From the NCBI GenBank assembly GCA_034226945.1, contig CP120455.1, forward strand, positions 558,001 to 622,000: a DNA stretch of 64,000 nt. The letters run 5' to 3'. Source of the DNA: Picochlorum sp. SENEW3 (lineage: Eukaryota). This document shows positions 11,201 through 52,950 of the stretch, one piece after another. Below the pieces are notes generated by a model. It was not told the origin of the DNA. It did not search any database and was given only the letters and a program-made list of their open reading frames with translations. Position 1 is the first letter of the stretch; each line of letters begins with the position of its first letter. Both the position numbers and the translations under genes were made by a program.

Positions 11201-14200
11201 AACAATAGACAACAATTTGGTCTTGACTTTTTGGATCTTTTTTCACAAGTGCAACTACCTGTTTCACACCATTGCATGCACTTACAACAGACTCAATCTC
11301 CCCTAGTTCGATTCTGTAACCTTTTATTTTCACCTGATTGTCAATACGGCCCAAGAATTCAATGGAGCCTCCAAATCTCCATCTGACTAAATCACCAGTT
11401 TTATAGCATCTACCACTGTGAAATGGGTTATCGACGAATTTTTCAGACGTCAATTCCTCTTTCTGAAGATATCCACGTCCAACACCATCGCCGCCAATGA
11501 TCAGTTCACCGGGTACACCAACTGGGACTGGCATCAAGAATTTGTCCACAATATATGACTTGTAGTTTGGCATTGGGCCTCCAATAAGAACAGATGTATC
11601 ACTGGGTAGCTGCACTTGTGCGTTGCTACCGACTGTTGTTTCAGAAGGTCCATACGCATTTATAAAGCAGGGCACAGCGGCTGCCCATTTCTGCATGAGT
11701 GCAAGGGAACATGCTTCCCCAGCAGTCACCACCACTTCCAGACTTGGGTACATGTGGGGGTCCATTGTTCCTAAAACAGATGGCACGGCCCCAAGATGGG
11801 TCACTTTATATCTTTTCAAAGCCTGAGTCCAGTCTGGTGGTGTCCACAATATCAATGTAGCCCCTACCGCCAGACAAGGTAAGATATCCCCTGCATGAAA
11901 GCAAACAAAATACTTGGTAATCTAAAGGCGAGCTTTGCATCTATGGCATTGCACCAAATGGAACGTGTTATATTATGTTCAAAGGCGATGCAGTAGAACA
12001 GAAAAAGGTGAAGAACAAATCGCCACTTGCCTTGGGCCCCATCAAATCCAATTTTGAAAAATTGGAACTGCCTGGCATCTTTATGGATCCTGTACGTGGC
12101 AGATAGAGCGTGAACCATATTTATCGCGTTACAATGCTCAATCATCACTCCTTTGGGCCTTCCAGTGGTTCCACTTGTAAAAATTACGTATGCCAAATCG
12201 TTTTGAGTGGGCTTCACATGGCTCAACAGACCTGTACACTTTTCCTCTTCCTCAAAAATCCTTTCGACATCGAGCAGGATGACCCCTTTAGATATATCTG
12301 AAGACAGATTCCTGAACATATACTTCGAGGAAATCAAGAAGTTTGTCTCGATGTCTTCCATGATGTACTTGATCCTTTGCTCAGGGTAAGTTGGATCGAT
12401 CGGGACAAAGGCAGCACCTGCTCTTAATACTGCTACCTCTGAAACGATAAACTCAATACTTCTGTCTAGCAGGATACCGGCTATTTTCCCTGGCCCGATG
12501 CCGTGTTTTATTAAGACATTAGCAAGCTTGCATGACAATCTATCCAGCTCTCCATACGTAATCTCTCGACCATCATGTGCAACAGCAGGGTGATCAGGTC
12601 TGGATCTAGCTGCATCAATGATGACTTCATCCAGGGTTTTTTCATAAGAAACACTGATATGGTTATCATTCCACACATTTAAAACCAAATTTTCTTCCTC
12701 TTTCGTCATTATAGGAGCAGCCTCTGCTTTGATTGCTGGATTTGAGCAAGTCTCAGAAAGGAGCACATTGAAATGGGATGCAAACCGCTCAATAGTGTCC
12801 TTGCTGAAAAGGTCTGTGCAATATTCAATGCGACATTTTAGCCTATTTTCATACTCTGTTATCTCAAGTGTGAGATCAAATTTTGATGCAGTACTAGATG
12901 TCACCTGGAATCTTGAAAACTCCATAGTATCACTCACCCTTGTGGGCTGAGACTCTGCACGTTCTTGCAGGACCATCATGACTTGGAAAATAGGTGGATG
13001 TGAAGGGTTGCTGTCCCCCAACTCCTTGGCAATATGTACAAAACTGATGCCTGAATTCGAGAAGAGATCCAAAATAGTTCCTTGTACCCTTCTGAGGACT
13101 TCAGTAAACGAAGGATTTCCATTCAGGTCGGCTTTCACTGGTAGGGGGTTGACAAAATATCCCAATGTCTCCTCCACACATTTATGGTGGCGACCAGAGG
13201 TTGGAGTTCCAACAGCAAAGCATTTTTGCCCCGAATATCTAGAAAGCTGTATCTGAAAAACAGACATCAGGGCCACAAAAAGAGTAACCCCGTTCTCTGA
13301 AGCCACCCTTCTTATCAAATCTACGACGTCTTCTGCAACTTCAAAAGCATACAGATCACCTGAAGTGGATTGAATGGATGGCCGGGGGAAATCAATTGGC
13401 AGCTGCAAGGTCTCTATATCGCTAAGCTCCTTCATCCAAAATTTCATTTGATTTTTCATCACTTCAGAATCCAGAAGCTTCCTCTGCCAAAATGCAAAAT
13501 CAGTGTAGGAAACTCTCTCTGCTCGAAAAGCAAAAGAAGATGGATTACGAAGTCCATACAAACAGGCCAAATACTTTTGTATGAGAAACATGGACCAGCC
13601 GTCCGTGGCTATATGATGCATTACCAAGAGAAGGATGTGGTGGTTTTCACCAAGCTTTAGCAGTGTTGCTCTCACTGGTGGACCCAATCCCAAGTCAAAG
13701 GGTTTAGAGGTCAGTTTGGCAATAATCTGATGCAGAACCTTTGTGTCATATGGATTGACAGAAATAGTCGTAACATCCATTCCTTGGTACTCATCTGAAC
13801 TCAGAACCACAGGCTGATACCTCCCAGATGTTAGACTGAAGTATGTCCGGAGGGTCTCAAAGTTCATCCCAAGGAATTTTAAGCAGTCCTTCAATTTCTC
13901 GGTATCCAATGGCCCTTTCATATCAATACCAAAAGGAACATTATACGAAGAAGATTTAGGATCCAAGTGATACAGAGCAAGCATCTGTTCCTGTCCAAAA
14001 GACAAGACAAACTCCTGTCCTTGAAACGACTTTGCTACCTCTACTGGAGATTCATACTGTAATTGATCACCATTGATAACCCATGCTGCCAGATTTCGAA
14101 TTGTTTTGTTCCTTAAAATATCCGCGACATTGATCATCTTGTTTTTAAACTCTTCTTGCATAGCATACGCTAATCGAGCAGCTTTGATTGAGTTCACCCC

Positions 14201-16033
14201 AAATTCAAGTATGTCATCTGTTACACCAATGTTGGTCAGACCCAGCTCTTTCTCCCAGATTCGTGTGATTGACTCTTCCAAAGGGCCTTGGGCAGGCACC
14301 AAACTCTTCTTCAAGATTTTTCTTGCATCCAATGTAGTTGCATCGATAATCGGCCTCACCCCACTAGACACTAGTGATGAAAAAATAGACATACGGATTA
14401 TTTTATTGGTCGATGACCTGGGGAGCACTGACACATCATCAATGACATAAATTGAAGCCGGGACTTTGAAATCAGGAAGCATTTTTTTGCAGTACGATAG
14501 GACTGAATATGCCAAATTAGAATAATCATCGCCGTTACGCTTGGGCACTAGCACAAGTCCAACATCTTGTCCAAGCCATTGATCTGGTATTGAAAAGCAG
14601 TACGACTCTGCAGCACATTGACTCATATAGACAGTGTCTTCGATTTCAGTTGGTGAGATTTTCTCTCCTCCTTTATTGATAATTTCCTTTACTCGTCCAG
14701 TAAGTGTTAGATATCCTGCTTGGTCCAGATAGCCGAGGTCACCTGTTCTAAACCATCCATTGATGAAGGCATTTTTGTTTACTCCGTGGCCATCATCCAG
14801 GTAGCCGTCAAATACACTACCACCTTTGAGACAAATCTCACCGATCTCCCCAGTTTCTTTCTCCTTAAAGTCGTTTCCGCTATCAAGATCTAATATACAA
14901 ATTGAAATGGATCCTACGGGGATTCCCACAGAACCTGGGACTTTCTTTTGTGGCGTGAGGGGATTGGAGCACACAACAGATGCTGCTTCTGACATTGCAT
15001 AAGAGTTGATCACTCTAATACCCATTTTACTCTCGATTTCCAGTTCAATAGTTGAGCTCAAAGGTGCTGCAGCACAGCGAAGAAATCGTAACTTGCTTCC
15101 TTTGGGCATTCGAGACTGCTTGGACATATCAATACTCCATCTATCCAAAAGTGCAATGTAAAATGCTGGCACTCCTGTAAACCAAGTGACCCCCCTGCTG
15201 ACTACTTGGTCCCAAAATACCGATGAATCAAAAGATACTGGAAATACCAATTTGCCCCCTGAGCACAGGGTTGTCATCAAAGCAGGGCCAAGACCGCCAA
15301 TGTGAAAAAGAGGCATGCAGTGTAGATGGGCATCCTCCTGTCCAAGATGATAAAATTTGGCGAATGCCGTGACAGCGTCTGAAAATGCCCTGTGAGTAAT
15401 AGGAACTCGTTTAGGCTTGCTGGTGGTCCCACTGGTCAGAAGAAGAATTGCAACATCGTCCCCTGACGAAGTCCCCTGATCCAGGAACTGCTCCATTTCC
15501 TCTGGAAGTGCAGTCGTCAGTGCTGAGTATTTCCTGGTCAAACCACGCCTATTTACCTGGGACGTGCTTCTAATTAGGCTTTTGGATTTATAATTTCTAT
15601 TACCTTCTGTGCACAGAGTGATGGGCAGTATAGGATCTCCCTTCAAGATCAATCCAGCCCGTATCACAGGAATGCCCAGCCTTTTGGCTGCCTCAACTCC
15701 ATTATGCACATTGAGGGAACTTTCATCGGGTACAATCAGACAAGCCGCGTTGTAGTCATTCAGAGTATGCAGAAAACTCTCTTCAGGTATGGCATTGTTG
15801 ATTGGGGCGTATACATGACCCATCACCACGCCTAAAAATACGACAACGTCCTCCACGTGGTGCCCTGGGGCAGTGGCTACAACCTGTCCAGAACTTATTC
15901 CATATTCAAGCAACTGCTGATGGATAGAGCGAGCTAGATGGTTCAACTCCATATATGATAACGATATTTCGCCATTATCAGTTTCAATTGCCACTCTTGG
16001 CGAACACGTTATCAGGCTAGCTACAGAGGTCAT
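8201..16033 (-). CDS. Multimodular NRPS (~2490 aa): acyl-CoA-ligase-like A1-T1-C-A2-T2 plus Pls/PosA-type terminus (3x TM + left-handed beta-helix)
   Basis: A1: TSGTTSKPK, PLFHIGGL, YAMSEA, GWFRTGDLG, GGEKISP. T1: GVNS. C: HHIATDGWS. A2: TSGTTGRPKG, NAYGPSET, YKTGD, QVKIKGYRIELGEIE. T2: GGSS. Terminus: three LxGAKIG/hexapeptide blocks ending WxGxPA. Introns at 11891-12030 (GC-AG), 11127-11192, 10941-11017 (GC-AG) and 8432-8508 all restore the frame. Confidence 0.9.
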
Positions 16034-16389
16034 ATTGTAGCAAAAATCACCTTCCCAATCGAACTAGCAAAACAGTCGTAGTCCGAACGCCACCAGTGGA
16101 TCGAATATGATATATTGACGGGGACTTAAGACGTGATCTAAATCCAATGTCTTCGTATACAAACGTGATTGCTCTTTGGGAGCGAGATTTCCTGCAGGAA
16201 ACCAGCGAACGCGCTTGTGGATAAAATTCACCGTGCAAACAAAAATGGCCATTTGTGCACCATATCAGGCATTATAACACAGAAAGATTACCTTTTCGAC
16301 TATTATTATATTATGAATTCTAATGCATCGTCTTAGACACATGACGTAAATTTGCAAACCACGCCACGACTGATGACGTTATGCATCGA

Positions 16390-16411: not shown

Positions 16412-16619
16412 CACGTGCACGAGCCATCCGTTTACAGGATGGCCTGCGAGTATGATTCATGGACAAAAATGCATAGCACTGACTCGAAATGTGACATGCT
16501 CTATTTCATATCTAATATCAATTCTTTAGTCAAAGGCGTTAACTGGAGTTGTCCAGACTCGGTGCAACCTTTGAGGTTTCCACTGCGGAAGTGATACGTT
16601 CTCAGCGTTTGCGTTCCAT

Positions 16620-18455
16620 ATGAAGATGGGGCCTTCGTCAAAGTATGCGTCTTTTGCTTTGATTTCTTTGTTATTTGCAGCCGTCTTTCCCATTGGAGGA
16701 GAGACCCAGGCAGCCTCTGTCTCGAGGCCGACTGCAGGTCTCTGGCCAAGGGATATTTCTCCTCGTTTGAATATCCTTACCATGCTTGAGCCGGAGCATA
16801 AGGTTGAGTTTGATTTGCTGGTGCAAAGCTTGACTGCCATACAAAACATGTCTCCAGAAGATCCCAGGTCATTCTTCGCCATTGCTGGCATTCATGGCAT
16901 GCCATTTGAGGAGTACAACTCATCAACAGTGCCCGGATTTCAATGGACACCAGACATGCCTCCACCTCAGTGGGGGGGATACTGCCACCACGGCGATGTT
17001 CTGTTCCCAACATGGCACAGAGCATACATGTTACAGATTGAAAATTCCATTCTGGAACAGGCAACTTTGATCGCTAGGACATATCAAGATGAAAACGTGA
17101 AGAGGGACTACTTGGAAGCAGCAAATCGGCTTCGATTCCCATTCTGGGATTGGGCAGATGATGTGACAGCAACAGAGGGTATACCTGATGTATTTACAAA
17201 CAAGACGCTAACAGTGAATCTGCCACCATATAATCTGCCCACGCCAGTAGCCAACCCGATGCGTGCCTTCTCGTTTACAAAGAGTGTTGGGACACCTTTT
17301 GGAGTTGGTGATCAATACAATCCTCAAAATGGAGCCTTATACACAGTGCCGCCTGGCCATATTTATATGGCTCCAGGATATTCTACAGTAAGGCAGCCTG
17401 TATTTGGATATGCAACAAATGATACAATGTTGAACGAATCAGTGAAGATTTCTGCGGCAACCACCTTCATCCCAGGCCTGTACGATCTGTTCCAGGTTCC
17501 AGATTTCAGGGTGTTCTCGAACCATTATGCCACTTCGCCAATCAAAGGAAATCAAAATGCAACCCAATTTTTATACTACGCGTCTTTGGAGGGATTACAT
17601 GACAGTATCCACAGGGCTGTGGGTGGATTGGGAGGCCACATGAGATTCAACACCATGGCTGGATTTGACCCAATTTTCTTTTTCCATCATTCTAACGTCG
17701 ACAGAATTTTTGCTTTATGGCAGCGTATGTACCCAGATCAATGGATAAAACCATCAACTGCTATTCAAGGGACATTTACTGTGCCATCAGGGTCCACTGT
17801 TGATGAGAATACAGCATTGATGCCATTTTACGCCCCATCAGGCAGTTACTATGTCTCAACTGATCTAAGAGATGTTACACAACTAGGTTATACCTACCCA
17901 GAACTTATGAATGCTGATTCGAAGGGGATTGGCTCTGTTGAATTTCGCAAGGAAATATTGAACCAGTATCGACCAAATAAGGAAGACGCGTTCACCACTC
18001 GCTGGTATCTGGGATTGAGGGATGTTACAGCAAAACAGCTTCCTGGTGCATTTAGCATCCACGTTTTCATAAATCCAGATGAAACTCCGACAATAGACAC
18101 TTCATTGCAGAACAATCCAAATTATTGCGGATCTGCTGATTTCAGTTCCGGCAAAACTACTGCAGTCCAGAAGTTTGATGGTCAGGTATCTCTCACCAAG
18201 TGTTTCGTCAACCTATATTTGACAAAGTATCCAGTTATTGGCAACCCAAGCACAGCAAACATCACAGATGCTCTTGCTACTTTGGCAGGCTACCCATTGC
18301 TTTATTCAGATCTCTACTATGTGATTGAAGGCTCTGATGGATCTGACTTTTCTGAGTACGTCACCATGTCTGACAATACCATATTTTATGTTTACGAGCG
18401 AGGAGGTGAGACATATAGAAATTCAGTTCCCAAAAGGCCAAACGTTATTGGCTAG
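16620..18455 (+). CDS. Secreted tyrosinase (type-3 copper oxidase) with C-terminal shielding-type domain
   Basis: N-terminal signal peptide. CuA: AGIHGMP, YCHHG, FPTWHRAY; also PFWDW. CuB: LHDSIH, FDPIFFFHHSNVDR. LGYTY motif. Intronless. Confidence 0.92.
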   Translation: MKMGPSSKYASFALISLLFAAVFPIGGETQAASVSRPTAGLWPRDISPRLNILTMLEPEHKVEFDLLVQSLTAIQNMSPEDPRSFFAIAGIHGMPFEEYNSSTVPGFQWTPDMPPPQWGGYCHHGDVLFPTWHRAYMLQIENSILEQATLIARTYQDENVKRDYLEAANRLRFPFWDWADDVTATEGIPDVFTNKTLTVNLPPYNLPTPVANPMRAFSFTKSVGTPFGVGDQYNPQNGALYTVPPGHIYMAPGYSTVRQPVFGYATNDTMLNESVKISAATTFIPGLYDLFQVPDFRVFSNHYATSPIKGNQNATQFLYYASLEGLHDSIHRAVGGLGGHMRFNTMAGFDPIFFFHHSNVDRIFALWQRMYPDQWIKPSTAIQGTFTVPSGSTVDENTALMPFYAPSGSYYVSTDLRDVTQLGYTYPELMNADSKGIGSVEFRKEILNQYRPNKEDAFTTRWYLGLRDVTAKQLPGAFSIHVFINPDETPTIDTSLQNNPNYCGSADFSSGKTTAVQKFDGQVSLTKCFVNLYLTKYPVIGNPSTANITDALATLAGYPLLYSDLYYVIEGSDGSDFSEYVTMSDNTIFYVYERGGETYRNSVPKRPNVIG

Positions 18456-22321: not shown

Positions 22322-24427
22322 ATGGTGGAGACGGAGCGTTCTGAGGTCCTGACTGGCGTGGCCATGGGGACCCGAGGTGGCGTGGTGCGTCGTTGTTCGT
22401 TTTCCAGTGCCGTTGGTGCTGAATTAGCAGTAGATGAGTGGATTTAAATCATATAGATGCATTCATGTCGTCATATACTTGAGAGACTGGCAATTTTGGG
22501 ACTGAATGTTTCTTTGCGTGATGTGCAGATGGAGGGAAGCATACAACTTAGTTCAAAAGGTATCGTGTGGAAGCGAAGCGGCGGAGGTAAGACGGTCGAA
22601 GTGGCATCTGACGATATCAAACGTATGATGTGGACAGAGATGCCGCGTATCGAAAATTCTACAGGGGTGAAATCAACGGTGCTAGTGGTAATTCGAAAGG
22701 ATGCCAATGGATCTGTGAATTTCATAGGATTTCCAAAATCCAAGCTAGCCGCACTTCAAACCATGGGACTAGGTGAAGCCAAAGAGACAAAGTTAACGAC
22801 CAAAGGCGCCAACTGGGGCTCTATTGAGATGCAAGGGGCGAATGTCATTTTTAAGAATGGGGACATGCCTGTTTTTGTCGTCCCTCTGTCAGATGTGTTG
22901 CAAGCACAGCATGGGCGTGAAGAAGTAACTGTTCAGCTTCCAGTGGATGATCAATCTGTGGATCGTAATGATGACGCCTTGGCTGGATTGTCCTTCTATG
23001 TGCCCAAGGCATGTGAAGATTTTGGCAAGGCTGAAAAGGATGGTGAAGAGTTGCCTGCTAGTAAAAAGTTTTATGATGTTTTGAAATCGTACACCATGGA
23101 TGTTGGGGCAGGTGATATCATCGCATCGTTTGACTCTGTTGGTGTGCAGCTTCCAAGAGGCAGATTTGATGTGGAGATGTATCCATCAAGTTTTCACTTG
23201 TTGGGTCAGGCACACGATTTCAGAGTGCAGTACAGCTCTATATTGCGTATTTTCATCTTGCCTCGATCAAATGCACCGCAGACTATTGTGGCAGTGGCGT
23301 TGGATCCACCATTAAGAAAAGGACAAACAACATACCCCATGGTCCTGTGTCAGTTCCATAATGATGAAGAAATGACCATAGATTTGCAATTGAGCGAAGA
23401 ATCTTTGAAGAAATTGAACGATAAAGGAGCCAAGTTGACGAAAGAAATGACTGGTCCCTCCCCGGATGTGTTTGCCAAGACTCTGAGGGGTCTGTCTGGA
23501 GCCAAACTGACACGCAATGGTGCATTCAGGGATGCAACAGGGGAAGGGCATGCAGTTCGTTGCTCGTACAAGAACGACGACGGTCATTTGTATCCTTTGG
23601 AAAGAGCGTTCTTTTATCTGTTGAAGCCACCCATGTTGATTCCATACGACGATATTCGAAGCGTGGAGTTTATGAGGCAGACAACAGGTATATCTGCTGC
23701 CAAGACGTTTGATCTTCTGATAAAGATGAAAGGTGTTGCTGATGATGTACGGGAGCAGCAATACTTATTCCGAAGTATTCCTCGATCAGAATGGACCAAC
23801 TTGTTCGAATGGATTCAGGCCAAGGATCTCAGAGTCGAAAATCTGAAAGAGGTGCAGAATGGTCCATCAGCTCCAAGCCCCTATGGAGAAGGCATGGTTG
23901 GCATCGATCCTGCTCTTGCGGCAATTGATGCACAAGAGAGTGATGAAGATGAATACGAGGAGCCAGACGAAGACTTTGAGGCTTCAGAAAGTGAGAGTGA
24001 TGGTGACGATAGTGTTCTGTCTGATGAGGAGGGAGCACCAGATGTTGTTCCAGAGACCAAACCAAAGCGCAGCAAGCCAGTGTCAGAGAGAGAGGGTGGC
24101 AAAAAGAAGCGCAAAAAGAAGGATAAAAATGCACCCAAGAAGGCATTATCTGCGTTTATGTGCTTCTCGAACAGCGTGAGGGAGAAAGTCAAGGAAGACA
24201 ACCCTGGTATTGCATTTACCGATGTTGCCAAAAGGATTGGAGAGATGTGGAAAGAGCTGAGTGACGCAGACAAGGCTCCATATGAAGCTATGGCCAACGA
24301 AGACAAGGAACGATATGCCAAGGAAATGGCCGCATATAACGCTGGGCAGACCGAAGCAAAGCAAGAGGAACCGAAAGAAGAGGTGAAGACTGAGCAAGAG
24401 GACTTTTCCATCAAGGATGAACCATAA
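22322..24427 (+). CDS. SSRP1: FACT complex subunit SSRP1
   Basis: Motifs GANWG, PRGRFDVEMY and LDPPLRKGQTTYP, an acidic tract and an HMG box (DKNAPKKALSAFM). Intron 22385-22528. Confidence 0.95.
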
Positions 24428-30719: not shown

Positions 30720-31254
30720 ATCGTTATCAGACCCTTATATACACGTCAATGGTCTCAATCGAGCGCTCTTGGAATGTTTTCGCTCATGGTTTCAAAAACC
30801 AATTCCTCTCCACATGTCTATCCATCTTCCAAAACAATACACGAATGTCCAAATACAGTCCTATAAAAATCAAATATTACATGTAGATGTACAGATGGAG
30901 CGTGTCGATGCCTAGGCCAAATTCAAACGCACGCCTGTCGATCGATATCCGACTGGCCCATTAAATCAACCATCTGATGGTACGCATAGTTTCTCAAGAG
31001 TATGGCATCCGCATAGTAATAGTCTTGCATGGATTCAGAGCATGATGAAAAGAATTCTATTTTTAAAACACAACTGCATATAGGTTATTCTCCTTGCTGA
31101 TGCCCTACAGGCTGCACAAGTGTCATGCCAGCGTGGAACGCAATTGAATTTCACAAGAGCAGGGAATGGCATCTATATGCAAAGGAAAACGATTGAAAGT
31201 ATCTATAGAATTTTACAAAAGAGGTGGACGATAGATTGGAGGTGTAGAGAGGCG

Positions 31255-34200
31255 ATGATGGGGACACGACGTGTTGGTGGGCACCCTGTGGGTGGTGGTC
31301 GAGTAGGGGCTGTGGATGCTCTGTGTATCAATCCACGGGTCAAGTCGATGATTGGAAGGGAGCGTATATATACCGGTGGTGGACGGGGTTTTCAGGCGTG
31401 GCGTCGAATGATGTCTGTGAGTAGTGATGTTGAATGGGTTGATGAGCAGGCAGAAAGATACGGGGTTGATGATGAGAGAGCACCCCCGCAGTATTCCAGC
31501 CAGACGCACGTGTCGGTGGAGGGGAAGATTATGAAAGTTCAATATAGATCAAGTGAGAGTGGGTATTCCGTTCTCAAGGTGGGAATAGATCCAGAGAGGG
31601 CAACAGATATTCCCAATCTTGCACTTGAGGGGTCTGGATCAAAGTTTCGGTATGGTCAGAAGAAGAGGCGGCGAGATTTTTCGATTACTGTTGTTGGTAT
31701 TTTGCCAGTGTTGCACGTTGGACAAGGGGTGACTGTGCAGGGAAGTTGGACAACACATCCTACGTATGGGATGCAGTTGAAGGCACAGCAGGTTGAGACA
31801 AGGACACCGAGTGGACATGAGGACCTTGTGTCGTTCTTGTCTGGGGGTGCGATTCATGGAGTTGGACCATCGACGGCGGTTCGGATGGTGGAGGTGTGGG
31901 GAACGGATATTCTTGATGTGCTTGATTCTTCAGATGCTGTTGTGAAATTGCAACAGTGTGATGGCATTGGGAAGAATAAAGCTGTTGCGATCAAGTCTGC
32001 GTGGGATTGTGGGAGAGATGCTCGGGATGGAGCAAAGTTTTTATGTGAAGGTGGTATCCCGGCTGGTCCAGCGCAGAGAGTGGCTGAATTGTTTGGAGGG
32101 GATACGCAAAGCAAGGTTGATGCTGATCCGTACTCAACATTGAGTCGTTTTGGGATTTCTTTGGATGCTATTGAAGCGTTTGCAGTCAAGACGGGTGTCA
32201 TGTCAGACTTTGTGTCTCGTATTTCATTGGTTATAACACGGTGTTTGATGGCATCGTCAAATCGAGATGGACATGCGTATTTGCCATGGGGGGGACTGGA
32301 AGGCCTTGCGTTGACAAGATTAGAGACCTTGTCGCATCGATTTGGAGGTACGGAGTATATATCATTTGGATGGAGTATTATACAACAGGAATAAGAAGAC
32401 CGAGTTCCATTTTTATTGTTCATGCAGGTGATTTTAGAACAGTGACCCCTGATCAGTTGAAACGAGTTGCCTGGCATATGTGTCACAAGGGAACATTAAT
32501 TTGTGAGACGGGGGACTTGTTTCATGGATCGAATTCAAATGTTGGGAGTATTTCTGTTCCTTCTGTATCTGTTGATGAAATGCGAGGGATCCTGCATGGG
32601 GTGACAAAGAGGCAAATGGAATCATTGCTGGATACGCATGGTGAGAATTTGGTTGGGATTCTTTCCGGTGATGAGGAAGAGGCAGTCGACTTGCTGAAGA
32701 AATGCCCTGGCATTGGGCCCAAAACTGTGGAAAAAATTTTAAATGCATGGAAAGAAAATAGGCCTGACACTCAGGGTAGAGCATTGTTGCATGGTGTATC
32801 AATCATTGAAGATTTGGAAATGGCAAACATAGATTCCCCATGTGAATGGACAGACTCTGTGCGGTGTTACTTACCGCAATTTCATAAAGCAGAAACAACT
32901 ATTGTAGATTGTATCACTGGAAAATCTTCAATCTCACAGGATATTTCACCTCCTAGATCTCAAAAGATCAAGCAATGGATTGACATGAATCAAGAGACAA
33001 CAAACGTTGTTCTATCCAAGGGGCAGCGTGCTGCAATCGAATTGGCTTCAGATGCACCGATTCTTGTCATAACAGGGGGTCCTGGATGTGGTAAAACTAC
33101 AGTATTGCAGTATATTGTCAAATTATGGTGTGCTCAAGGAAAGATGGTGCATATTTGTGCTCCAACTGGTCGAGCAGCTCAGCGAATTGGTGCAATTCAG
33201 AACGTGGAACCGAGTACAATACATCGATTATTAAAGTATAGACCAAAGAACTCGTCAGAAGCACAGTCAGGAATGTCCTTGGAATCTTTGGATGAAGATG
33301 AGATAGACTGGGGAGAAATGGACTGCTTTGAGCATGGTTTGACAAACAAACTTGAGTCCGATGCCGTTTTAGTTGATGAAGCGTCAATGCTCAGTCTTCC
33401 TCTTGCGGCTGCATTGATGCAATCTCTAAAAACCGAGACCCAGCTTATTCTTGTCGGGGATGTTGACCAACTTCCCCCTGTAGGCCCTGGTGGTATTCTA
33501 GATGCCGTAATATCATCTGGTGTTGTTCCTGTTGTCGATCTTCGTGAAATTTTCAGGCAAGAAACTACATCGAACATTGTTACATCTGCTTTATCTGTGC
33601 GAAGTGGAAACTATCCACCAGTGCCCGAGTTACATCTAGATGGAGGGAATGCTTTCGATCAGATTGTGCATCAGAAGGGATCATTTATTGTCAGAACTGG
33701 TGACAATATCATCGAGTCGGTTGAGCGCATTGTCGAAACCATGATCCAAGAACCTGGAGCGGATATTAGTGACACACAGATCATTAGTCCAATGAGAAAA
33801 GGTCCCGTTGGCGTTGGGGTATTGAATCCAAGGATCCAGGCTATTGTAAATCCTCCCGAGCTTGGAAAACTAGAAGTCTCTAGAGGGGATGTGATCCTAC
33901 GAATGGGAGACCGAGTATTGCAGCTACACAACGACTATGACAAAGATGTCTACAATGGGGACCAGGGAACCATTGTGGATGTGGATCCAGTGCTCAAAAA
34001 GGTATGGGTGCAATTTTCCAAAGGTTTTGGTGGAGACAGCCAATTGCTTGAATATTCAGGCATGGAGCTGTCTCATCTGGATTTGGCATATGCGGTGACT
34101 GTTCATAAAGCCCAAGGTGGTGAAGCAAAGAATGTTGTTATGGCACTGTCACATCATCATGGCAGGCTTCTGACACGCCCTTTGCTATACACTGGCATCA

Positions 34201-34751
34201 CACGAGCACGGGAGACCTTGGCCATGGTGGTTGGATCGACTTTGATAGACCCGGTCTCGGTTGCTATCAACACAGTGGGTATGGAGACACGCTTGTCATC
34301 TTTGGTTGAACGGCTAGTTTCCAAAGCAACAGCGCTGCATATTCCCCACCATGAGGTTGCAAGCTTTTTTGATGAGCAGGAAGAATGTGGCAATGCCAAC
34401 TGTGGTGTCCAAGAAGTTCTGAATGAATTACAAGTACGGAAGAACACAGCAGACAAAATAATCAAAATATTCGAGTCTCAGAATCTTCCTTGCGTGGATG
34501 TAGCGATGCTTCAAGCCAACATTCAATTGGTGTCCGACATTTGTACATCTGGACAAGCCTCCCCTGACCAAGTGCTCGAATCTGTACCTTTTCTTATGGT
34601 CGCTTCCCAAGACTATCTTAGCAAGAGTCTAGAATTTAGCACGAAAATACATGATGGCATCATGTCCTCATCTCCAGGACAGGATGATGACAGCAGCAGT
34701 CTTGTCATGCAGCTTGCACACCTCAGACATGCTTGGCAGGACAATCAATAA
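31255..34751 (+). CDS. RecD2-like SF1B ATP-dependent DNA helicase, probably organelle-targeted
   Basis: N-terminal OB fold (HPTYGMQ) and HhH motifs; TGGPGCGKTT, APTGRAA, VDEASM, GDVDQLPPVGPG, IFRQ, AYAVTVHKAQG, YTGITRAR. Intron 32348-32427. Start approximate. Confidence 0.9.
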
Positions 34752-34761
34752 TCTTATTCGA

Positions 34762-36612
34762 CTATATCCACTCTTCTCTGAGAATCATTGTGCTGAAAAT
34801 CTGACATATAGATTCCATTGTAAGCATCTCATACAAAGATTCGAAATCTGCTTTCACACCGGCAACCGACATGCACTCCAACTCCTGTGCCCATTGCTCT
34901 GCTCCAAATGCTTTCAGGACGCCCAGCAAATTTTTCGACAGCGAATAATCCCGTTTCGTCATTTCTTGCAACCCACCTTCGACACTTAATCCCTTGATGG
35001 TTGACATGCGCAGGCCTAACCATTGCAAATCTGGCAATGTAAACTCCTTTGATTCTGGGGAATTTTCAGATCCAAACTTGTACTGAGCCAAGATATGCAA
35101 TCCATGAGGATTCCAATCCACCAGTCCCACCATAGGAATTGAAGGATATGTATCATGCAGCTTTTTTAAAAAGGCACGCGTCGCGATATCTGGATACCCT
35201 TTGGCAGTGACGAGCAAACAGTCCTTGAGCATTGGTGAAGCTTGAACAAATCGCTGAAACATGGTTTCCTTCTCAATAACCAGAATACACGACGCACGAC
35301 ACCTCATAGTCGACTTCCAAATCAATGGTATGCATCCTGGTATAGAGTATCCTCTTTCGAGCAGAGAGCAGTCCACAGAAGGCATGAGTGACCCTGTAAA
35401 CTCCATCACTAATGGCCCATACACCAGTCCCTTTGAGCAACAATCTATACCCAGACTGTACCTTGGAACCTGTAATACACGGCACGCATTCCTCAACACA
35501 TCTGCATGTTGAGTTGCCTTTAGCAAAGGATCTCGAGCCTTGCTGGCGTAATATAGCTCCCTTTGGGTACTCCTGTGACCAGTACACAGCAACCTTTCAT
35601 GCGCCGTGTTCAGCATGGATACAAAGAGTGCAAAGCGATCCAAAGACGATACATTCCCAGGATCAATTCCAAAAAGAACTTTCTGCCTCTGTGATACATC
35701 AGCAGGAGAAGAGAAAAAAACAGGAAGCTGCCCCATGGACAGGGTCGACAAGATGAATTCGACACAGCATTCAATCCTCTCAATCACTTCTGATGCATTC
35801 AAACCCTATAAGAACAACATAATCATATGATGATGATTGCATATATGTGTATATATCAGCGCATACGAGTACCTAATAATAAAACCCACACGCACCATGT
35901 TCAGCATCCCAGACCCTACTTTGACCCCATCATGGTCATGCCTCATTTTATCATGCTCAATACCACCAACGGGCTGACACACGGTCAACTCTTCCTCCAA
36001 CCCATATTCAAACACACCATCATCATAGTCTTCTTCTTCTTCTTCTCTTTCTCTATGCATATCTCGCTGCTGTGGAGTATGAGTAGCATCCCCAGAATCC
36101 GCACAAGAGGGTCGTTTCCTACACTTCCTTCCATGAACCATTCCAACATCCCCGACACATTCCGCCATCAAACCACTACTACGAGGCCCCCTCTCACTCC
36201 ACGTTGGAATCACTGCATAATACTCTTGAATACCGCAAGACCCAGTATCATGCTCTGACACCCCACTGGTGTCCTGGCATAAGACATCTTCACGTGGCCT
36301 CTTTGACGCCACAAATTCATCCTTGAGCTCCTTCAGCGTCTTCTCCTCCGCAGTATCGGCACAAGAGACAAGAATCCTCTCATAATACCGCTGCGGAGCA
36401 GCAATATTCCATATCTTTGCACAACACGCCAGAGGACTCTGAAACACCTCTCCACAAGAAGACAACTCATCACACCATCGTATCCGTCCATCCTCCAATA
36501 CATCCAAAACATACTCTCTACTTGGATCATTTGTACTCGACAGTCGCATGACACCCTCTCCAACCGGCACCACCCCCGCCCGAACCATATCCCGAAACAC
36601 ACACCCAACCAT
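34762..36612 (-). CDS. SPO11-2: Meiotic SPO11-2 with a spliced N-terminal RAMA-like domain and acidic linker (~586 aa)
   Basis: Catalytic TQRELYY; IEKETMFQR, TAKGYPDIATR, and VDWNPHGLHIL (SPO11-2-type). The core ORF begins at a TTG and joins in frame to the upstream exon through intron 35806-35895. Confidence 0.85.
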
Positions 36613-36659
36613 TGATTGATTACTACGCCAAGTGCGTTTTACTTGCTCTTGTCTAATAA

Positions 36660-36904
36660 TATTATTATTATATGTATTAAATAATGTATAATTGTATATG
36701 CGAGTATACAGCAAATGCATGAAGACATGCGTGGATGACCATATCGAGGCAGAGCCACAAACATCCACTTGCATGAGGACCTGCATGGCATTGGCTGGCG
36801 AGCAACTCATGCTGATGAATACAACCAGACACCACGGATGGCATAATGATGGGATTTTATGATCAGCATAGAGGAGATTGAGTGATTATTAATCCCGTCA
36901 CCAT
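36660..36904 (+). repeat. Direct repeat A, copy 1 (~245 bp)
   Basis: A ~98-bp core (36770-36868) is near-identical to 39411-39510; the flanks are more diverged. Confidence 0.9.
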
Positions 36905-36959
36905 ATAGATTTAAAAATACAAACAGATGTATGTGTGCTAATGATCTCAAGTATGAGCT

Positions 36960-37341
36960 TGCTGGGATCCCTCGATGAATATAATCTGGCAGAGAAGACG
37001 ACAACGATAACGATGAAACTACGGATGATGAGGACAGTGCTAGTGAGTAGTCAGAGTATTCCGAAACAACATCATCCTCCAGTGGTAGCAGTGATGACCC
37101 TGAAGTACCAGAGGAATCAGAGCCTGATCTCGTGAATGAGTTCGCCGAACTGAATACATGTGATTCAGATACTTTTACTCAATGTATGGATCATATGGTG
37201 GCCAAGAAAGTCTCAGATCAGCGCCGAATAGCCATGGACCGACAGGTTGTCGCCAAGGCATCGAGGAATGCCATGAAGAACAAAGGCAAGCGCAAGGGGC
37301 ATACATCTGGCAATAAGGCAATCAGCGCTGTCATTGGTTGA
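36960..37341 (+). pseudogene. Gene 3' fragment resembling a RIO2 kinase C-terminal tail, with an in-frame stop
   Basis: Acidic tract with TAG at ~37048-37050, then QRRIAM..ASRNAMKNKG, which recalls plant RIO2 tails. No kinase domain. Confidence 0.4.
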
Positions 37342-37860
37342 TAGACATGATAATTTTGTGTTTTATTGCTTTGTAATACAGCATAGGATCCGGTGGTAAG
37401 GGGTGACTTGCAGAGAGCTGATGTGCTCTCTCTGTTAACAGAGGCAACGTTGCCAATCGCAAGATTTTGTGTGGATCGCCTTGTCGATCCTCCAGGAGGT
37501 CACCATCTCAAGGCAAAAATGCAATGAGGGGTTTTGCCGCGATGTTGAACTACTGCAGTGTAGACAGCGGGGATACACCGTGATTAGGCACGGCAGTACA
37601 CTAGTGTTGCAAGAGGAGTAGTGCTCACTCGTGAAGCCTAGGCCTTTGGGTAGAAATGAGGGTTACGCGGCGCATCGGCAAGAGTAGCGTAATCGAGGCT
37701 GGCGTGTCAGAACTACGCGGTCTCATCCAATCTTCTTGTCGCACACGACGAGAAGAGGAAAAAATTTTATATTACAGACAATATCTCTCTAGATTTTCAT
37801 GCACGACGTCTGCTTCATGGAGACGAGTGCAAGTCGATTTTCAGAGGAGTCAACCAGGTA

Positions 37861-39058
37861 ATGGTTCACCGGCCGAGAATACTTGCAAGAACTGCTCATG
37901 CTGTCGTCACGTTGCTCTTCGTCGCAAATCTCGTGGTAGGAGGACAAAATGATTCAATAGCATCACTAGCATCTGGAGGACGGCTCTCGACGCTGGGTGG
38001 AACGTGCTTTGACAGCACAGTGAGTGACGAGGCAGTGCTCAGAGACCTCAGAGGGCAGCATGTGAAGTTCAATCTGAAGAAGAGGTATGTCAAGAATGAA
38101 TATTGTTCTCACTCATACAGTGAGTATCTAGTGTGTGTATGGTGTGAATCCATGACATTCTGGGCACAATATACTTGAGTGCAGCATGTATAGAGATGGT
38201 GACATTATTGCTGTGTACAAGTTGGACAGACCAGGACATGGCAGTCTAGCTGGATGTGCGGATGCCTGTCTGTTGAATTGGAGATTAACAAATGATATGA
38301 GTCAAGCTTTGGACACAGACTGCTCTTTAGATGAGAACAGTCACTGCCCCATGACATCTGGAATACTTGTGGCAGACAGAAAGTGTCAGGCATTCATGTT
38401 CAATCGAATCACAAGTGTGTGCACTTTATTATCAGCAGATCGATCCTTAAAGCTTACTGGAAGCAGCAACTTCTGGTCAGGGAAGCTTATGTGCGAGGAT
38501 ATGAATAATATTCATGACTGGGCAGAGAGCATTGTTGGCAGGGTCAGTCCACCACCCCCACCTCCTGCAGACGCCAACATACTTCTTGGATGGCCACTTT
38601 ATAATACCATAGGTGGAGGCCAGCAAGATGTTAATAAAAATCAAATGAAGTCATTGGGAGCTGATATTGCAGGCAGTTTCCCTCTTAATACAAAAGGAAT
38701 TATTTATGAAAAGGGTGGAACCGGATACGGCACTGTTATCTACATGGTCAATGGGACACTATACGTGCAGAGTGGGGCTGGTAATGTGCAAGGTGGGACC
38801 GTGGAGTTGTCCTACACGCCAACATCTACGATTTCAAACATGAAATTTGCAATTGACTTTACAAACCAAACGTACATACTGGCTGTGAATGGGGCCGTGG
38901 TAGACAGAAATACAAATACATATGACAAATTGGCATGCGGGACCAACACTGGTGGCACAAGCAATGAATACGGGGGGTCCACAGCAGTACGTCGTGACAC
39001 ACAAAAAGCTCTTCTCAATGGATTTGTGACATCTTGCAGTCTATATTCATATGGCTGA
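37861..39058 (+). CDS. Secreted protein: PAN/apple-like Cys domain, poly-Pro linker and LamG/ConA-like C-terminal domain
   Basis: Signal peptide; CADAC..CQAFMFN..CTLLS; SPPPPPPA; GIIYEKGG..YILAVNGAVVD. Intron 38085-38184. Confidence 0.65.
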
Positions 39059-39299
39059 TTGAATTTGACATTTCAATTTTTGAATGTTTCTATTGAACTG
39101 CGCATATATTGTAGTCAGAATGTAGAGACAGCATAACACTATGTATTGCATGAGACTGTATAAAGCTTCTATGAAACTTTAAGAATAAATATCTTGCATA
39201 TCTTGCATGCCTTGGCTGAGGATGCCTTGTCCAGAACACATCGTACTGCAGCTTTCAAAAATCCGTTCTCCTGCTGTTCTTTCTAATCTGATGATGATA

Positions 39300-39542
39300 G
39301 TATTATTATTATTTTATACATGCAATACTGCATTAAAAGGCATTGGTATACGAGAGTACTCAGCATGTGCATGAATGACCACCTCGAGGCACACCCATAA
39401 TCATCCACCATGCATGAGGACCTGCATGGCATTGGCTGGCGAGCAACTCATCCTGATGAATACAACCAGACACCACGGATGGCATAATGATGGGATTTTA
39501 TGATCAGCATGGAAGAAATGCAGTGGTTAATCCCGTCACCAT
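39300..39542 (+). repeat. Direct repeat A, copy 2
   Basis: Collinear with 36660-36904. Confidence 0.9.
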
Positions 39543-40397
39543 GTACGCTATCCATATCATTCGGTGCATCTCCTTCTTCTTCTGGAAGAATCTCTGTGGA
39601 AGTTGTATCTCCCTGATGCAATTCCTGATCAATCACTTGAACGAAGATGTAGAAAACTTTAAAGGATAGATCATAGAGGTGTATTGCATGGTAAACGCTC
39701 TGCTCGATCTGGCACGAATATTGTACAACATTGACAACAACAACACCGTGGATCTGAGGCACTTCCTGCCCAATTGACACGATCGTTGAATGTGATGTCG
39801 TACTTGTATCCAGCAAAATTTTTGGGTCTGTCGCTTCAACTAGATTGCAGATTCATACCTAAATACGTAGCCTGTTCGTAGATGATGCAGTCACTCCACC
39901 TTGGCAGTAAGCCTGCCAAGATGAAAAGATTCGGATATGGGGGCAGCGATGATCACTTGACACAGCTATATGGCCTGCATCGCCCTTTCAACACTGCTAT
40001 GCTGGCGCATCACATACATCAACCGAATGAGGCTGTAAAGTATGCCTCTTCTGTTCAGTCAGCATCAAGAACAGTACACGTCTGATGTGGGTTCGGCAGT
40101 CTTTACTGCGACTACCCCGACTTCCACAGCTCTGGGTGTCGTATTTTGCTGTTATAGTACCAAACAAAATGGTCTTACTCCTAGCGGAAGTATGAGATCA
40201 CAGTCTGCAACCCTGTTCCGATCCCCTAGAATGACTAGAGATCTCTAGAGATGACATTGTGCGTGTAACGTAATATGATAACGCCTGGCCAGGGACGATG
40301 ATGTAAAAGCATGTACATAGAAGTCATCTGCATGGCCACACGGAATAAAATCAACTCGTGTTGTACATGCCACTTTCATTTCAACGACAATTCGACA

Positions 40398-51286: not shown

Positions 51287-52950
51287 ATGGTGAGACGACG
51301 GAGAAAACAGCCTCAGCAACCATTGCAGGTGGGTCGCACAGGATTTCACTTATAGATATATCCTTTTTTTAATGTGCTAGATCTAGCATGGGGTATGTCT
51401 AGTTTGAAAAGAGGGAAGCATTGAAAAAGAATTTCCTCACAAATGCCCATGCTTGTGTGTTTTTGTTTTTTTTTAATATTCTTCTCTATATATAGCGATT
51501 CATATACCCTCTTGACTTTACTCAATATATGTACATATAAAACCATGAATGAATGAATGAATATCTGTCTGTGCAGAAGGCGAAGAAGAAACCACAGAGT
51601 AGTGGTAGTTCCACTGCTGCTCCTCAAGCAGTTCCTTCGGTATGGATGCCAGCGACAGGAGGGGCGTTGCAGGAGGATGAAGAGTTGCAGTATGATCCTA
51701 CAGCATACGATTGTATGGCGTCTTTGACGTTGGAATGGCCGAGTTTGAGTTTTGATATTATGAGGGATGGGTTGGGTGATGATCGGCGAGAGTTTCCTCA
51801 TTGCTTGAGTTTTGTGGCGGGGACGCAGGCGGGGTCTGCGAAATTAAATCATCTTGCGGTGGTTCGAGTGACAAATTTACACAAGAGTAAGGCTGCAAAG
51901 AAGACTGAAGACGAAGAAGAAGATGATGATGATGTGGTGATGATGAGTGAGGATGACAATGACGATGAGGAGGAGGAGGCTGTGGATGCGGTGCTGCATG
52001 TGAGAAAGATTGCGCATACAATGGGTGGGATTAATAGAGTGAGAGCCATGCCCCAGAATGGGTGTATTGTGGCGTCCTGGTCGGATACTGCACAGGTGCA
52101 GACATGGGATGTGTCATCATTGTATGAAGAGCTTGTGCAGGAAGGCACTGATGATGCGGGACAGAACGCGTCGAATAATGCAAAGAGTAGTAGAATGAAT
52201 TCGCTGCGTGCGCTCCAGGTACATGGTCATGCTATGGAAGGGTATGCGTTGGATTGGTCGCCATGTGTGGCTGGGCGGTTGGCCAGTGGGGATTGTCGTG
52301 CTGGGATTCATGTGTGGGAGCCTGTGAATGGTGGTAAATGGACTGTCGGTGGGGCTATTAAAGGACACACGGCATCTGTTGAAGATATTCAGTGGTCACC
52401 AGGAGAGCCTACGGTGTTTGCGTCTGCATCTGTGGATAAAACAGTGAAGATTTGGGATACAAGGGACACCTCTCGTGGGGCCATGATTACCTTTACAGCA
52501 CACGATACTGACGTGAATGTGATTTCATGGAATAGACAGACAATGTATATGTTGGCATCAGGAGGAGATGATGGGACGATGCGGGTATGGGATTTAAGAA
52601 CAATGTCGCAGCAGGAGACACCATCCCCACCTGTTGCCAACTTTTCTCACCACAAAGGCCCAGTCACCTCAATAGAATGGTGTCCATATGAGGCATCGAT
52701 GCTTACAACAACATCATCAGATGATACGCTTGCAGTATGGGATTTAGCATTGGAGAGAGACCCAGAGGAGGAAGCTGCCTTGGCTCCAGACACAAATGTG
52801 GCCACACCAGAAGACTTGCCACCCCAACTGCTCTTTGTTCACGCAGGGCAAAAGGATATGAAAGAGGCACATTGGCATGGACAGATCCCTGGAATGATTC
52901 TGTCAACTGCCTCTGATGGATTCAATATATTTAAACCGTATAATGTGTAA
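51287..52950 (+). CDS. GRWD1: Glutamate-rich WD40 protein GRWD1/Rrb1
   Basis: Motifs LQYDPTAYD, EWPSLSFD, VAGTQA, GHTASVEDIQWSP and LPPQLLFVH. Probable first exon 51287-51328. Confidence 0.92.

Follow-up and report, generated by a model that had tools for sequence, protein, structure and literature searches.

The gene described here lies on the minus strand of a stretch of DNA, 64,000 nucleotides (nt) long, from the green alga Picochlorum sp. SENEW3 (contig CP120455.1 of assembly GCA_034226945.1, positions 558,001 to 622,000 of the forward strand). We refer to this whole stretch as the window, and positions are counted from its first letter. SPO11-2 normally cuts DNA and so starts meiotic recombination. 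We find that the gene encodes a 586-amino-acid (aa) protein in which a SPO11-2 catalytic core is preceded by a predicted, divergent RAMA-fold domain and a predicted disordered linker. It is very likely that the RAMA and SPO11-2 parts are joined in a single gene, and the protein combines an already known enzyme with an already known domain in an architecture that is new and conserved.

The two-exon coding region reads from an ATG at 36612 to a stop codon ending at 34762. Its parts are as follows.

34762..36612, minus strand: RAMA-SPO11-2 coding region, 2 exons, 586 aa (reading frames, X2 contig and P0001 gene model).
36613..36642, minus strand: minimal 5' untranslated region (UTR), from the ends of transcript-like contigs at 36632 (X1, with sequencing adapter beyond) and 36642 (X2).
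36612..35896, minus strand: exon 1, 717 nt or 239 codons, starting with ATG (M-V-G-C-V-F-R-D-M-V-R-A-G...).
35895..35806, minus strand: intron, 90 nt, GTGCGT...TTATAG, 33% GC, skipped in X1 and X2 and kept in X5 and X6.
35805..34762, minus strand: exon 2, 347 codons plus the stop codon TAG (34764-34762), starting G-L-N-A-S, with no ATG.

Assembled contigs from public sequencing runs bear directly on this structure. One contig from each of two runs, X1 and X2, omits exactly 90 nt, with borders CT..AC on the plus strand and thus GT..AG on the gene strand. Both runs belong to one study of a relative that is ~98-99% identical, and the contigs were aligned to positions 34700-36700. The spliced X2 contig (2028 nt) extends from beyond 34700 to 36642 with this single 90-nt skip. 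The intron is kept in runs X5 and X6, which are "probably DNA". As the X1 and X2 contigs end 20 to 30 nt upstream of the ATG, RNA is the natural reading of these two runs, and the exons are accordingly joined in what we describe as transcript-like contigs (putative RNA). The first-pass annotation, made from the letters of this DNA alone, had proposed a 239-codon exon joined in frame through a 90-nt intron to a SPO11 core that begins without an ATG. Coordinates, frames, and contigs all agree with that proposal, exon 2 does open on G-L-N-A-S, and every peptide string that it quoted is found in the translation.

The junction is also seen in relatives. The NCBI gene model of Picochlorum sp. BPE23 (P0001, 579 aa, "hypothetical protein") has the same exon junction and is 94% identical to the window protein in exon 1 and ~100% identical in the core. 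In a second species (P0002, 624 aa), whose counterpart of exon 1 is 46% identical, an in-frame insertion of 24 codons, a fully open 72-nt intron, sits at the exact intron position. In a deeper relative (P0004, 662 aa), with a core 42% identical, both parts lie in one uninterrupted open reading frame (ORF) of 662 codons.

A sequence check found no ATG in 36642-36612 upstream of the start codon, and P0056 and P0002 conserve the residues that precede the second methionine; translation thus likely starts at 36612. The second ATG (M9), which is the start annotated in P0001, was rejected because these upstream residues are kept; it is also disfavored by the Pfam RAMA match, which already begins at residue 4. 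The 5' UTR boundary is a weak indication of the start site, as contigs do not reliably show transcript ends. The intron itself is in frame and open up to its final codon, TAG. An mRNA that retained it would give a 268-aa protein of RAMA domain plus linker, lacking the catalytic core.

The SPO11-2 core, which carries the catalytic residues, matches the Pfam family PF21180 (TOP6A-Spo11 Toprim) with 121.5 bits (E value, 4.7e-35) and PF04406 (TP6A_N) with 28 bits against a cutoff of 26. The following features were placed in it.

35446..35637, minus strand: TP6A_N (5Y-CAP / winged-helix) domain (PF04406).
35548-35565, minus strand: catalytic-tyrosine motif Q-R-E-L-Y-Y, residues 320-325, aligned to R-E-L-F-Y of named SPO11-2.
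34825..35286, minus strand: Toprim domain (PF21180).
35266-35277, minus strand: Toprim motif I-E-K-E (motif survey).
35101-35118, minus strand: Toprim metal motif D-W-N-P-H-G (motif survey).

The closest solved structures to the core are yeast Spo11 (8urq; E value, 2.7e-17) and archaeal Top6A. Among 55 homologues, "meiotic recombination protein SPO11-2" is the sole SPO11-paralogue name found on the land-plant matches. The catalytic Q-R-E-L-Y-Y aligns with Q-R-E-L-F-Y in both proteins that NCBI names SPO11-2, and D-W-N-P-H-G aligns with their D-W-N-P-A-G. We placed the protein in a quick maximum-likelihood tree of 56 rows, a sample that holds no authenticated plant SPO11-1 or TOP6A. D-W-N-P occurs in 38 of the 56 rows, all within a eukaryotic clade that also holds both named SPO11-2 proteins and the rows named for plants or green algae. 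The other rows carry D-C-N-P (2/56), D-W-D-P (1/56), or D-x-D-P-Y-G (12/56, one fungal and 11 of the archaeal group), and three archaeal rows fall outside the Toprim motif pattern. The window protein groups with P0001 to P0003 (Shimodaira-Hasegawa-like approximate likelihood ratio test [SH-aLRT] support, 100), then with P0004 and P0005 (99), and then with P0006 to P0008 (98). These groups sit in a chlorophyte clade with green-alga-named rows, sister to the land-plant SPO11-2 clade (SH-aLRT, 91-93).

Judged by its sequence, the Picochlorum protein is orthologous to plant SPO11-2, the Top6A-like subunit with the catalytic tyrosine, and its meiotic role is assigned by orthology. The earlier assignment of the core to the SPO11-2 type is borne out by its best named matches (plant SPO11-2), its D-W-N-P signature, and its place in a Viridiplantae clade, in a tree from which authenticated plant SPO11-1 and TOP6A are absent. 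Two Picochlorum genome papers list a spo11-2 homologue, solely as a toolkit gene.

Two features were placed in the N-terminal region.

36298..36612, minus strand: RAMA-fold domain, residues 1-105 (profile matches and predicted structures).
36427..36492, minus strand: most conserved RAMA motifs, D-G-R-I-R-W (41-46) and F-x-S-P-x-A (S59 to A62).

The Pfam RAMA profile (PF18755) matched exon 1 of the window gene with 24.0 bits (E value, 3.9e-5), under its gathering threshold of 35.2 bits. Scores of the orthologues were 16.1 (P0001), 21.5 (P0002), 27.8 (P0004), and 19.9 bits (P0056), and the matches covered profile positions 17-104 (P0002) and 6-103 (P0004) of 107. A precomputed PF18755 label exists on P0004, and the precomputed domains of P0001 do not include RAMA. 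The 35.2-bit cutoff is a curated score criterion and not a test of homology; hence, we call the domain a divergent RAMA-fold or RAMA-like domain.

We looked beyond Pfam with a profile (A2) made from three orthologous SPO11-2 N termini only. Searched against 1.84 billion representative proteins, A2 returned four matches: three Picochlorum-type fragments and one further protein, P0059 (E value, 4.5e-8; 49 bits). P0059 scored 96.4 bits on Pfam RAMA, over three repeats. Of bona fide RAMA proteins, this 441-aa orphan with three tandem RAMA repeats is the one closest to the SPO11-2 domain; a word-indexed sequence search detected no relatives of it. Against all PDB sequences, A2 ranked the MPND chain (7ydt/7ydw) first with an E value of 2.5e-4, the next match being at 0.88. 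When P0059 was added to the profile, MPND was matched over the whole domain with an E value of 6.1e-7, a gain that is partly due to P0059 itself. Residues D41, G42, I44, F57, S59, and A62 are invariant in the alignment that we term A3, and R43 does not vary within the SPO11-2 orthologues (A2 and alignment A4). The ESM Atlas gave no usable match for residues 1-106 or 107-239.

Predicted structures point in the same direction. Two AlphaFold models were made, one with P0059 in the alignment and one from SPO11-2 orthologues only. The model with P0059 had a predicted local distance difference test (pLDDT) score of 70.7 and a predicted template modeling score of 0.61. In the orthologue-only model, pLDDT for residues 1-105 was 57-79. 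By 10-residue block, the pLDDT of the models was 57-81 across most of residues 1-105, with one block of the P0059 model at 50. Both models show a helix, three strands, a helix, two strands, and a helix. Compared with 48,161 chains by VIA-align, the P0059 model matched MPND (7ydt_A) with a Z score of 9.7 (root mean square deviation [rmsd], 3.2 A over 88/92 residues), then CcrM (6pbd_B, residues 272-356) with a Z score of 7.5, the next match having a Z score of 3.6. The same comparison for the orthologue-only model gave 7ydt_A at a Z score of 11.5 (rmsd, 2.1 A over 88/92 residues), 6pbd_B at 8.1, and the next at 4.6. Foldseek agreed in its ranking, both for the P0059 model (MPND E value, 6.5e-4, probability 1.00; CcrM, 0.14; next, 0.34) and for the orthologue-only model (MPND, 4.3e-4, probability 1.00; CcrM, 0.12; next, 0.34). 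The RAMA structures that a structural paper names are these two, MPND and CcrM (PMC9963953).

On profile and modeling grounds, then, we assign residues 1-105 as a divergent RAMA domain, with a predicted fold that matches only the two solved RAMA domains. The first-pass annotation had likened this N terminus to the RAMA domain of MPND. The resemblance holds, in that the orthologue profile ranks MPND first in the PDB and the predicted fold matches MPND and CcrM. The Pfam match stays below the curated cutoff (24.0 versus 35.2 bits), but the link through the orthologue profile is significant and the predicted fold agrees.

Between the RAMA-fold domain and the core lies the linker, with these features.

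35896..36297, minus strand: predicted disordered acidic linker, residues 106-239 (pLDDT and charge count).
36172..36237, minus strand: linker motif 1, residues 126-147 (C-G-I-Q-E-Y ... W-S ... P-R-S-S-G), with C126, E130, Y131, W138, S139, and R144 invariant (A4).
35977..36051, minus strand: acidic run E-R-E-E-E-E-E-D (188-195) and motif 2, E-E-E-L-T-V-C (206-212), with E206, E207, E208, and C212 invariant.

Residues 106-239 have pLDDT below 50 and no secondary structure in the model, and they contain 14 K/R against 29 D/E. Linker motif 1 is 76% identical to P0002 and 41% identical to P0004, and no Pfam family was matched in the linker, motif 1 included. The motif 2 stretch resembles the acidic N terminus of green-algal SPO11-2 proteins that have no RAMA (P0006, P0009, and P0010), which suggests that the acquired part is roughly the RAMA domain plus ~90 residues.

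The fusion has a restricted distribution among the proteins surveyed. Sub-threshold Pfam RAMA matches were found in the window protein and three of the 15 relatives scanned; the other 12 (P0005, which is N-truncated, P0006-P0010, P0027-P0029, P0032, P0033, and P0035) had no RAMA match. A survey of green SPO11-2 N termini found RAMA in the window protein, P0001, P0002, and P0004 and in none of eleven other green-lineage proteins. All RAMA-bearing tree rows lie in one clade (SH-aLRT, 99), and RAMA is present in every member of this six-row clade for which the N terminus is available, namely, the same four; the calls for P0003 (exon 2 only) and P0005 lack the N terminus, and that for P0056 covers exon 1 alone. 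The simplest reading of these sequences would be that the domain was gained once, before the Picochlorum and P0004 lineages parted. As a guess from GC content and phylogeny (PMC12636532), the P0004 lineage might be Nannochloris. P0004 was not among the four matches of the A2 search; representatives clustered at 50% identity can hide fused forms in this way, and the fusion may in fact be more widespread.

What might a RAMA fold do on SPO11-2? The MPND RAMA domain binds duplex DNA through the backbone (S113, S115, and W135), independently of sequence and without base contacts, and mutating S113, S115, or W135 abolished DNA binding (PMC9963953). The same paper reports that the RAMA domain of CcrM likewise touches only the DNA backbone, nonspecifically, and that MPND RAMA binds histones directly, aided by an acidic region behind it. 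By analogy, the SPO11-2 of this lineage would have gained an N-terminal RAMA fold, joined by a disordered acidic linker of ~130 residues, which acts as a flexible tether indifferent to DNA modification. Through the tether, the complex that makes breaks would stay on duplex DNA or nucleosomal chromatin, much as the RAMA domains of MPND and CcrM touch the backbone. An MPND-like RAMA with an acidic flank could also bind histones, and the Picochlorum RAMA likewise precedes an acidic disordered region. The expected effect would be a higher local concentration of enzyme on accessible chromatin rather than sequence recognition. This is the mechanism that we favor, tentatively.

It is important to point out that several observations weigh against the account given so far. 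The classification of X1 and X2 as RNA is a guess, and no run with the junction is recorded as RNA. No SPO11-2 orthologue attains the Pfam RAMA threshold (16.1 to 27.8 versus 35.2 bits). The N-terminal region evolves faster: it is 55% identical to P0002 and 29% identical to P0004, compared with 85% and 42%, respectively, for the core. In an HMMER alignment, a comparison of sequence alone, MPND S113 corresponds to the invariant S59, whereas S115 falls on L61 (a position with H or R in relatives) and W135 on I80/L81. Two of the three MPND DNA-contact residues (S115 and W135) are thus lost, and the equivalent of S113 is kept. The Picochlorum domain is also slightly acidic (14 K/R versus 17 D/E; net, -3). 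Finally, sex is undocumented in Picochlorum, and thus even the meiotic role follows from orthology.

The lost contact residues and the net acidic charge would both fit a RAMA fold that has been repurposed for protein interaction or regulation (by way of histones, a partner in the break complex, or auto-inhibition of the core) and has no meaningful DNA binding. The direct binding of histones by MPND RAMA (PMC9963953) is in keeping with this, as are the two short conserved motifs inside the disordered linker, since docking motifs are often of this kind. However, the most conserved RAMA motifs are kept, including S59, the counterpart of MPND S113, and the domain of P0004 is basic (+6). We consider such a repurposing unlikely.

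Alternatively, the domain may specifically recognize N6-methyladenine (6mA) and direct breaks to 6mA-marked DNA, as the first-pass annotation supposed, for example to promoter-proximal DNA with methylated ApT in the linkers between nucleosomes just downstream of start sites. The name RAMA reflects an association with adenine methylases and restriction enzymes, and the domain was predicted to tell 6mA apart (PMC4738411), a prediction that the annotation had mentioned. In a pull-down, MPND RAMA bound selectively to a 6mA oligonucleotide, but MYSM1 RAMA did not (PMC6591016); in the structural study, 6mA left MPND RAMA binding unchanged, and the DNA was touched only at its backbone (PMC9963953). 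The literature conflicts on the preference of RAMA for 6mA, and the step from RAMA domain to 6mA reader is contested. A mark to be read is plausible in trebouxiophytes, as 6mA occurs at ApT, periodically in linkers downstream of start sites, in Chlamydomonas, prasinophytes, and the two trebouxiophytes Chlorella variabilis and Auxenochlorella (PMC12636532), and the predicted fold on which the idea depends appears solidly assigned. Against it stand the retention of just one of the three MPND DNA-contact residues, the top-ranked literature, in which we found no 6mA data for Picochlorum (PMC12636532, which treats both Picochlorum and 6mA, included), and the lack of an adenine methyltransferase among 26 further long ORFs scanned in the window, a tiny sample of the genome. 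Specific 6mA recognition is, in our judgment, rather unlikely. The fuller proposal, that a catalytic subunit with its own 6mA-ApT reader, placing breaks at promoters, evolved in a Picochlorum/Nannochloris-type lineage, is distinctly doubtful.

It is also conceivable that the gene is no longer meiotic and instead serves mitotic recombination or loss of heterozygosity, or that the extension is a nearly neutral leftover. Part of the meiotic toolkit is reported missing in Picochlorum, where sex is undocumented (Table S13 in the supplement of PMC11092101 lists the missing meiotic genes); Picochlorum and Nannochloris are vegetatively diploid (PMC12636532); transcript-like contigs turn up in ordinary public runs; and the N-terminal region changes faster than the core. 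But the catalytic tyrosine and the Toprim motifs are intact, the fusion is kept across lineages with cores only 42% identical, and Picochlorum is reported to have DMC1, HOP2, MSH5, MER3, and HAP2. A nonmeiotic or leftover status is therefore very unlikely.

That separate RAMA and SPO11-2 genes were wrongly joined, or that exon 1 is a chance open frame, is highly improbable: prokaryote-style gene calls do divide the locus (P0056 exon 1 only, P0003 exon 2 only) and a retained intron would give a RAMA-only product of 268 aa, but the X1 and X2 contigs join the exons precisely (putative RNA; an intron-less genomic allele is formally possible), P0002 is in frame throughout, P0004 is a single 662-codon ORF, and exon 2 has no start codon and alone would lose a conserved N-terminal helix. 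We rejected the reading as two separate genes on the spliced contigs, the P0002 read-through, and the P0004 single ORF.

The surroundings of the gene are those of ordinary nuclear DNA. GC content is ~45% throughout the window (46.3% is given for Picochlorum sp. BPE23 in Table 1 of PMC12636532). Together with the near-identity of the protein to P0001, this GC content points to a Picochlorum (Trebouxiophyceae), and an origin in Chlamydomonas was rejected on both grounds. Pfam matches identify SSRP1, an RBBP4-like protein, WDR3/Utp12, a pentatricopeptide repeat protein, phosphoglucomutase, and a nonribosomal peptide synthetase (NRPS)-like gene. A RecD2/YrrC-type superfamily 1 helicase of bacterial type (OB_YrrC, HHH_RecD2, AAA_30, SH3_13, and UvrD_C_2) lies at 31084-34751 on the plus strand, divided between two frames that overlap (31084-32394 and 32175-34751). 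The helicase and SPO11-2 converge, with stop codons only ~10 nt apart. The spliced X2 contig extends 172 nt past 34700 into the 3' end of the helicase, and the two transcripts therefore probably overlap.

On the other side of the gene is a 119-nt direct repeat, 94% identical, of which the window has two copies, at 36770-36888 and 39411-39529, 2641 nt apart; the first copy is ~130-250 nt upstream of the SPO11-2 transcript end. Each copy supplies the C-terminal end of a stop-to-stop ORF on the minus strand (36807-37178 and 39448-39852), and the last 20 residues of the two ORFs are nearly the same. Judging from these translations, the ORFs may be two small paralogous genes. Rfam returned nothing at 34000-40000, a range that includes the repeat region.

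Two chromatin genes are found in the window, an SSRP1/FACT subunit with an HMG box at 22457-24427 (plus strand) and an RBBP4/CAF1C-like WD40 protein at 51553-52950 (plus strand); we infer no functional link of either to SPO11-2. The NRPS-like gene (11172-16063, minus strand) has AMP-binding, PP-binding, and Condensation domains, and the ORF that follows holds a further AMP-binding part. Such a gene is unusual for a streamlined green alga, and an ORF with a tyrosinase domain (16575-18455) adjoins it.

The architecture itself appears to be new. Eukaryotic RAMA partners given in PMC4738411 are DUB, DAM, SET, PHD, Chromo, Tudor, Bromo, BRCT, ARID, MBD, the PARP zinc finger, AT-hook, RING, and ankyrin repeats; "Spo11" and "topoisomerase VI" have 0 mentions each in the main text of that paper. 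A full-text literature search returned no paper joining SPO11 with a RAMA domain or with MPND. SPO11-2 would thus be an added partner on the list of eukaryotic RAMA architectures. The fusion persists in lineages with cores only 42% identical, in a clade that is small. In Picochlorum, which serves as a chassis for engineering, sex has never been observed, and an intact, unusual SPO11-2 with putative transcripts bears on whether the alga recombines.

Compared with plant SPO11-2 (P0015 of Ipomoea triloba and P0017 of Telopea speciosissima), the Picochlorum protein shares the TP6A_N and Toprim domains, R-E-L-[FY]-Y, V-T-A-K-G-Y-P-D-I-A-T-R, and the unusual D-W-N-P Toprim signature, and its core is 36-37% identical over ~72% of its length. 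Whereas plant and most other green-algal SPO11-2 proteins have 365-503 aa and no RAMA, that of Picochlorum has 586 aa, with ~235 extra N-terminal residues. An independent case of a Spo11/Top6A scaffold gaining an accessory DNA-binding module is provided by Thorarchaeota-type Top6A homologues of 706-788 aa (P0042-P0054), in which helix-hairpin-helix and related DNA-binding domains are fused to the core.

With the RAMA domain of MPND (mouse; 7ydt and 7ydw), the Picochlorum domain has in common the motifs G-E-G-V, D-G-R-I-x-W, and F-x-S-P and an acidic region behind the domain. Identity is ~24%, and the two differ in charge (net -3 in Picochlorum versus +6 in the aligned part of MPND, by hand count) and in partner, which in MPND is an MPN/JAB deubiquitinase and not a nuclease-like core. 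CcrM, the Caulobacter N6-adenine methyltransferase (6pbd, residues 272-356), is the second-best fold match (rmsd, ~2.5 A over 79-82 residues; identity, ~20%). In both CcrM and Picochlorum SPO11-2, RAMA is attached to a DNA-processing enzyme, but in CcrM it is C-terminal to a bacterial methyltransferase.

Where SPO11 cuts is a central question in meiosis, and in studied models the choice is made indirectly, through chromatin readers and axis proteins. In yeast, the PHD finger of Spp1 together with Mer2, and in mammals PRDM9, are separate readers that guide Spo11 to hotspots. With the fusion, it becomes testable whether the choice of break sites can be built into the enzyme itself, possibly coupled to 6mA; if the domain did read 6mA, it would be a one-polypeptide alternative to hotspot designation of the PRDM9 or Spp1 type. 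The concept is the same in Spp1-Mer2 and PRDM9, in that a module binding DNA or a chromatin mark brings the break machinery to its sites. There, however, the reader is a separate protein, whereas in Picochlorum the candidate DNA or chromatin binder lies within the catalytic polypeptide itself.

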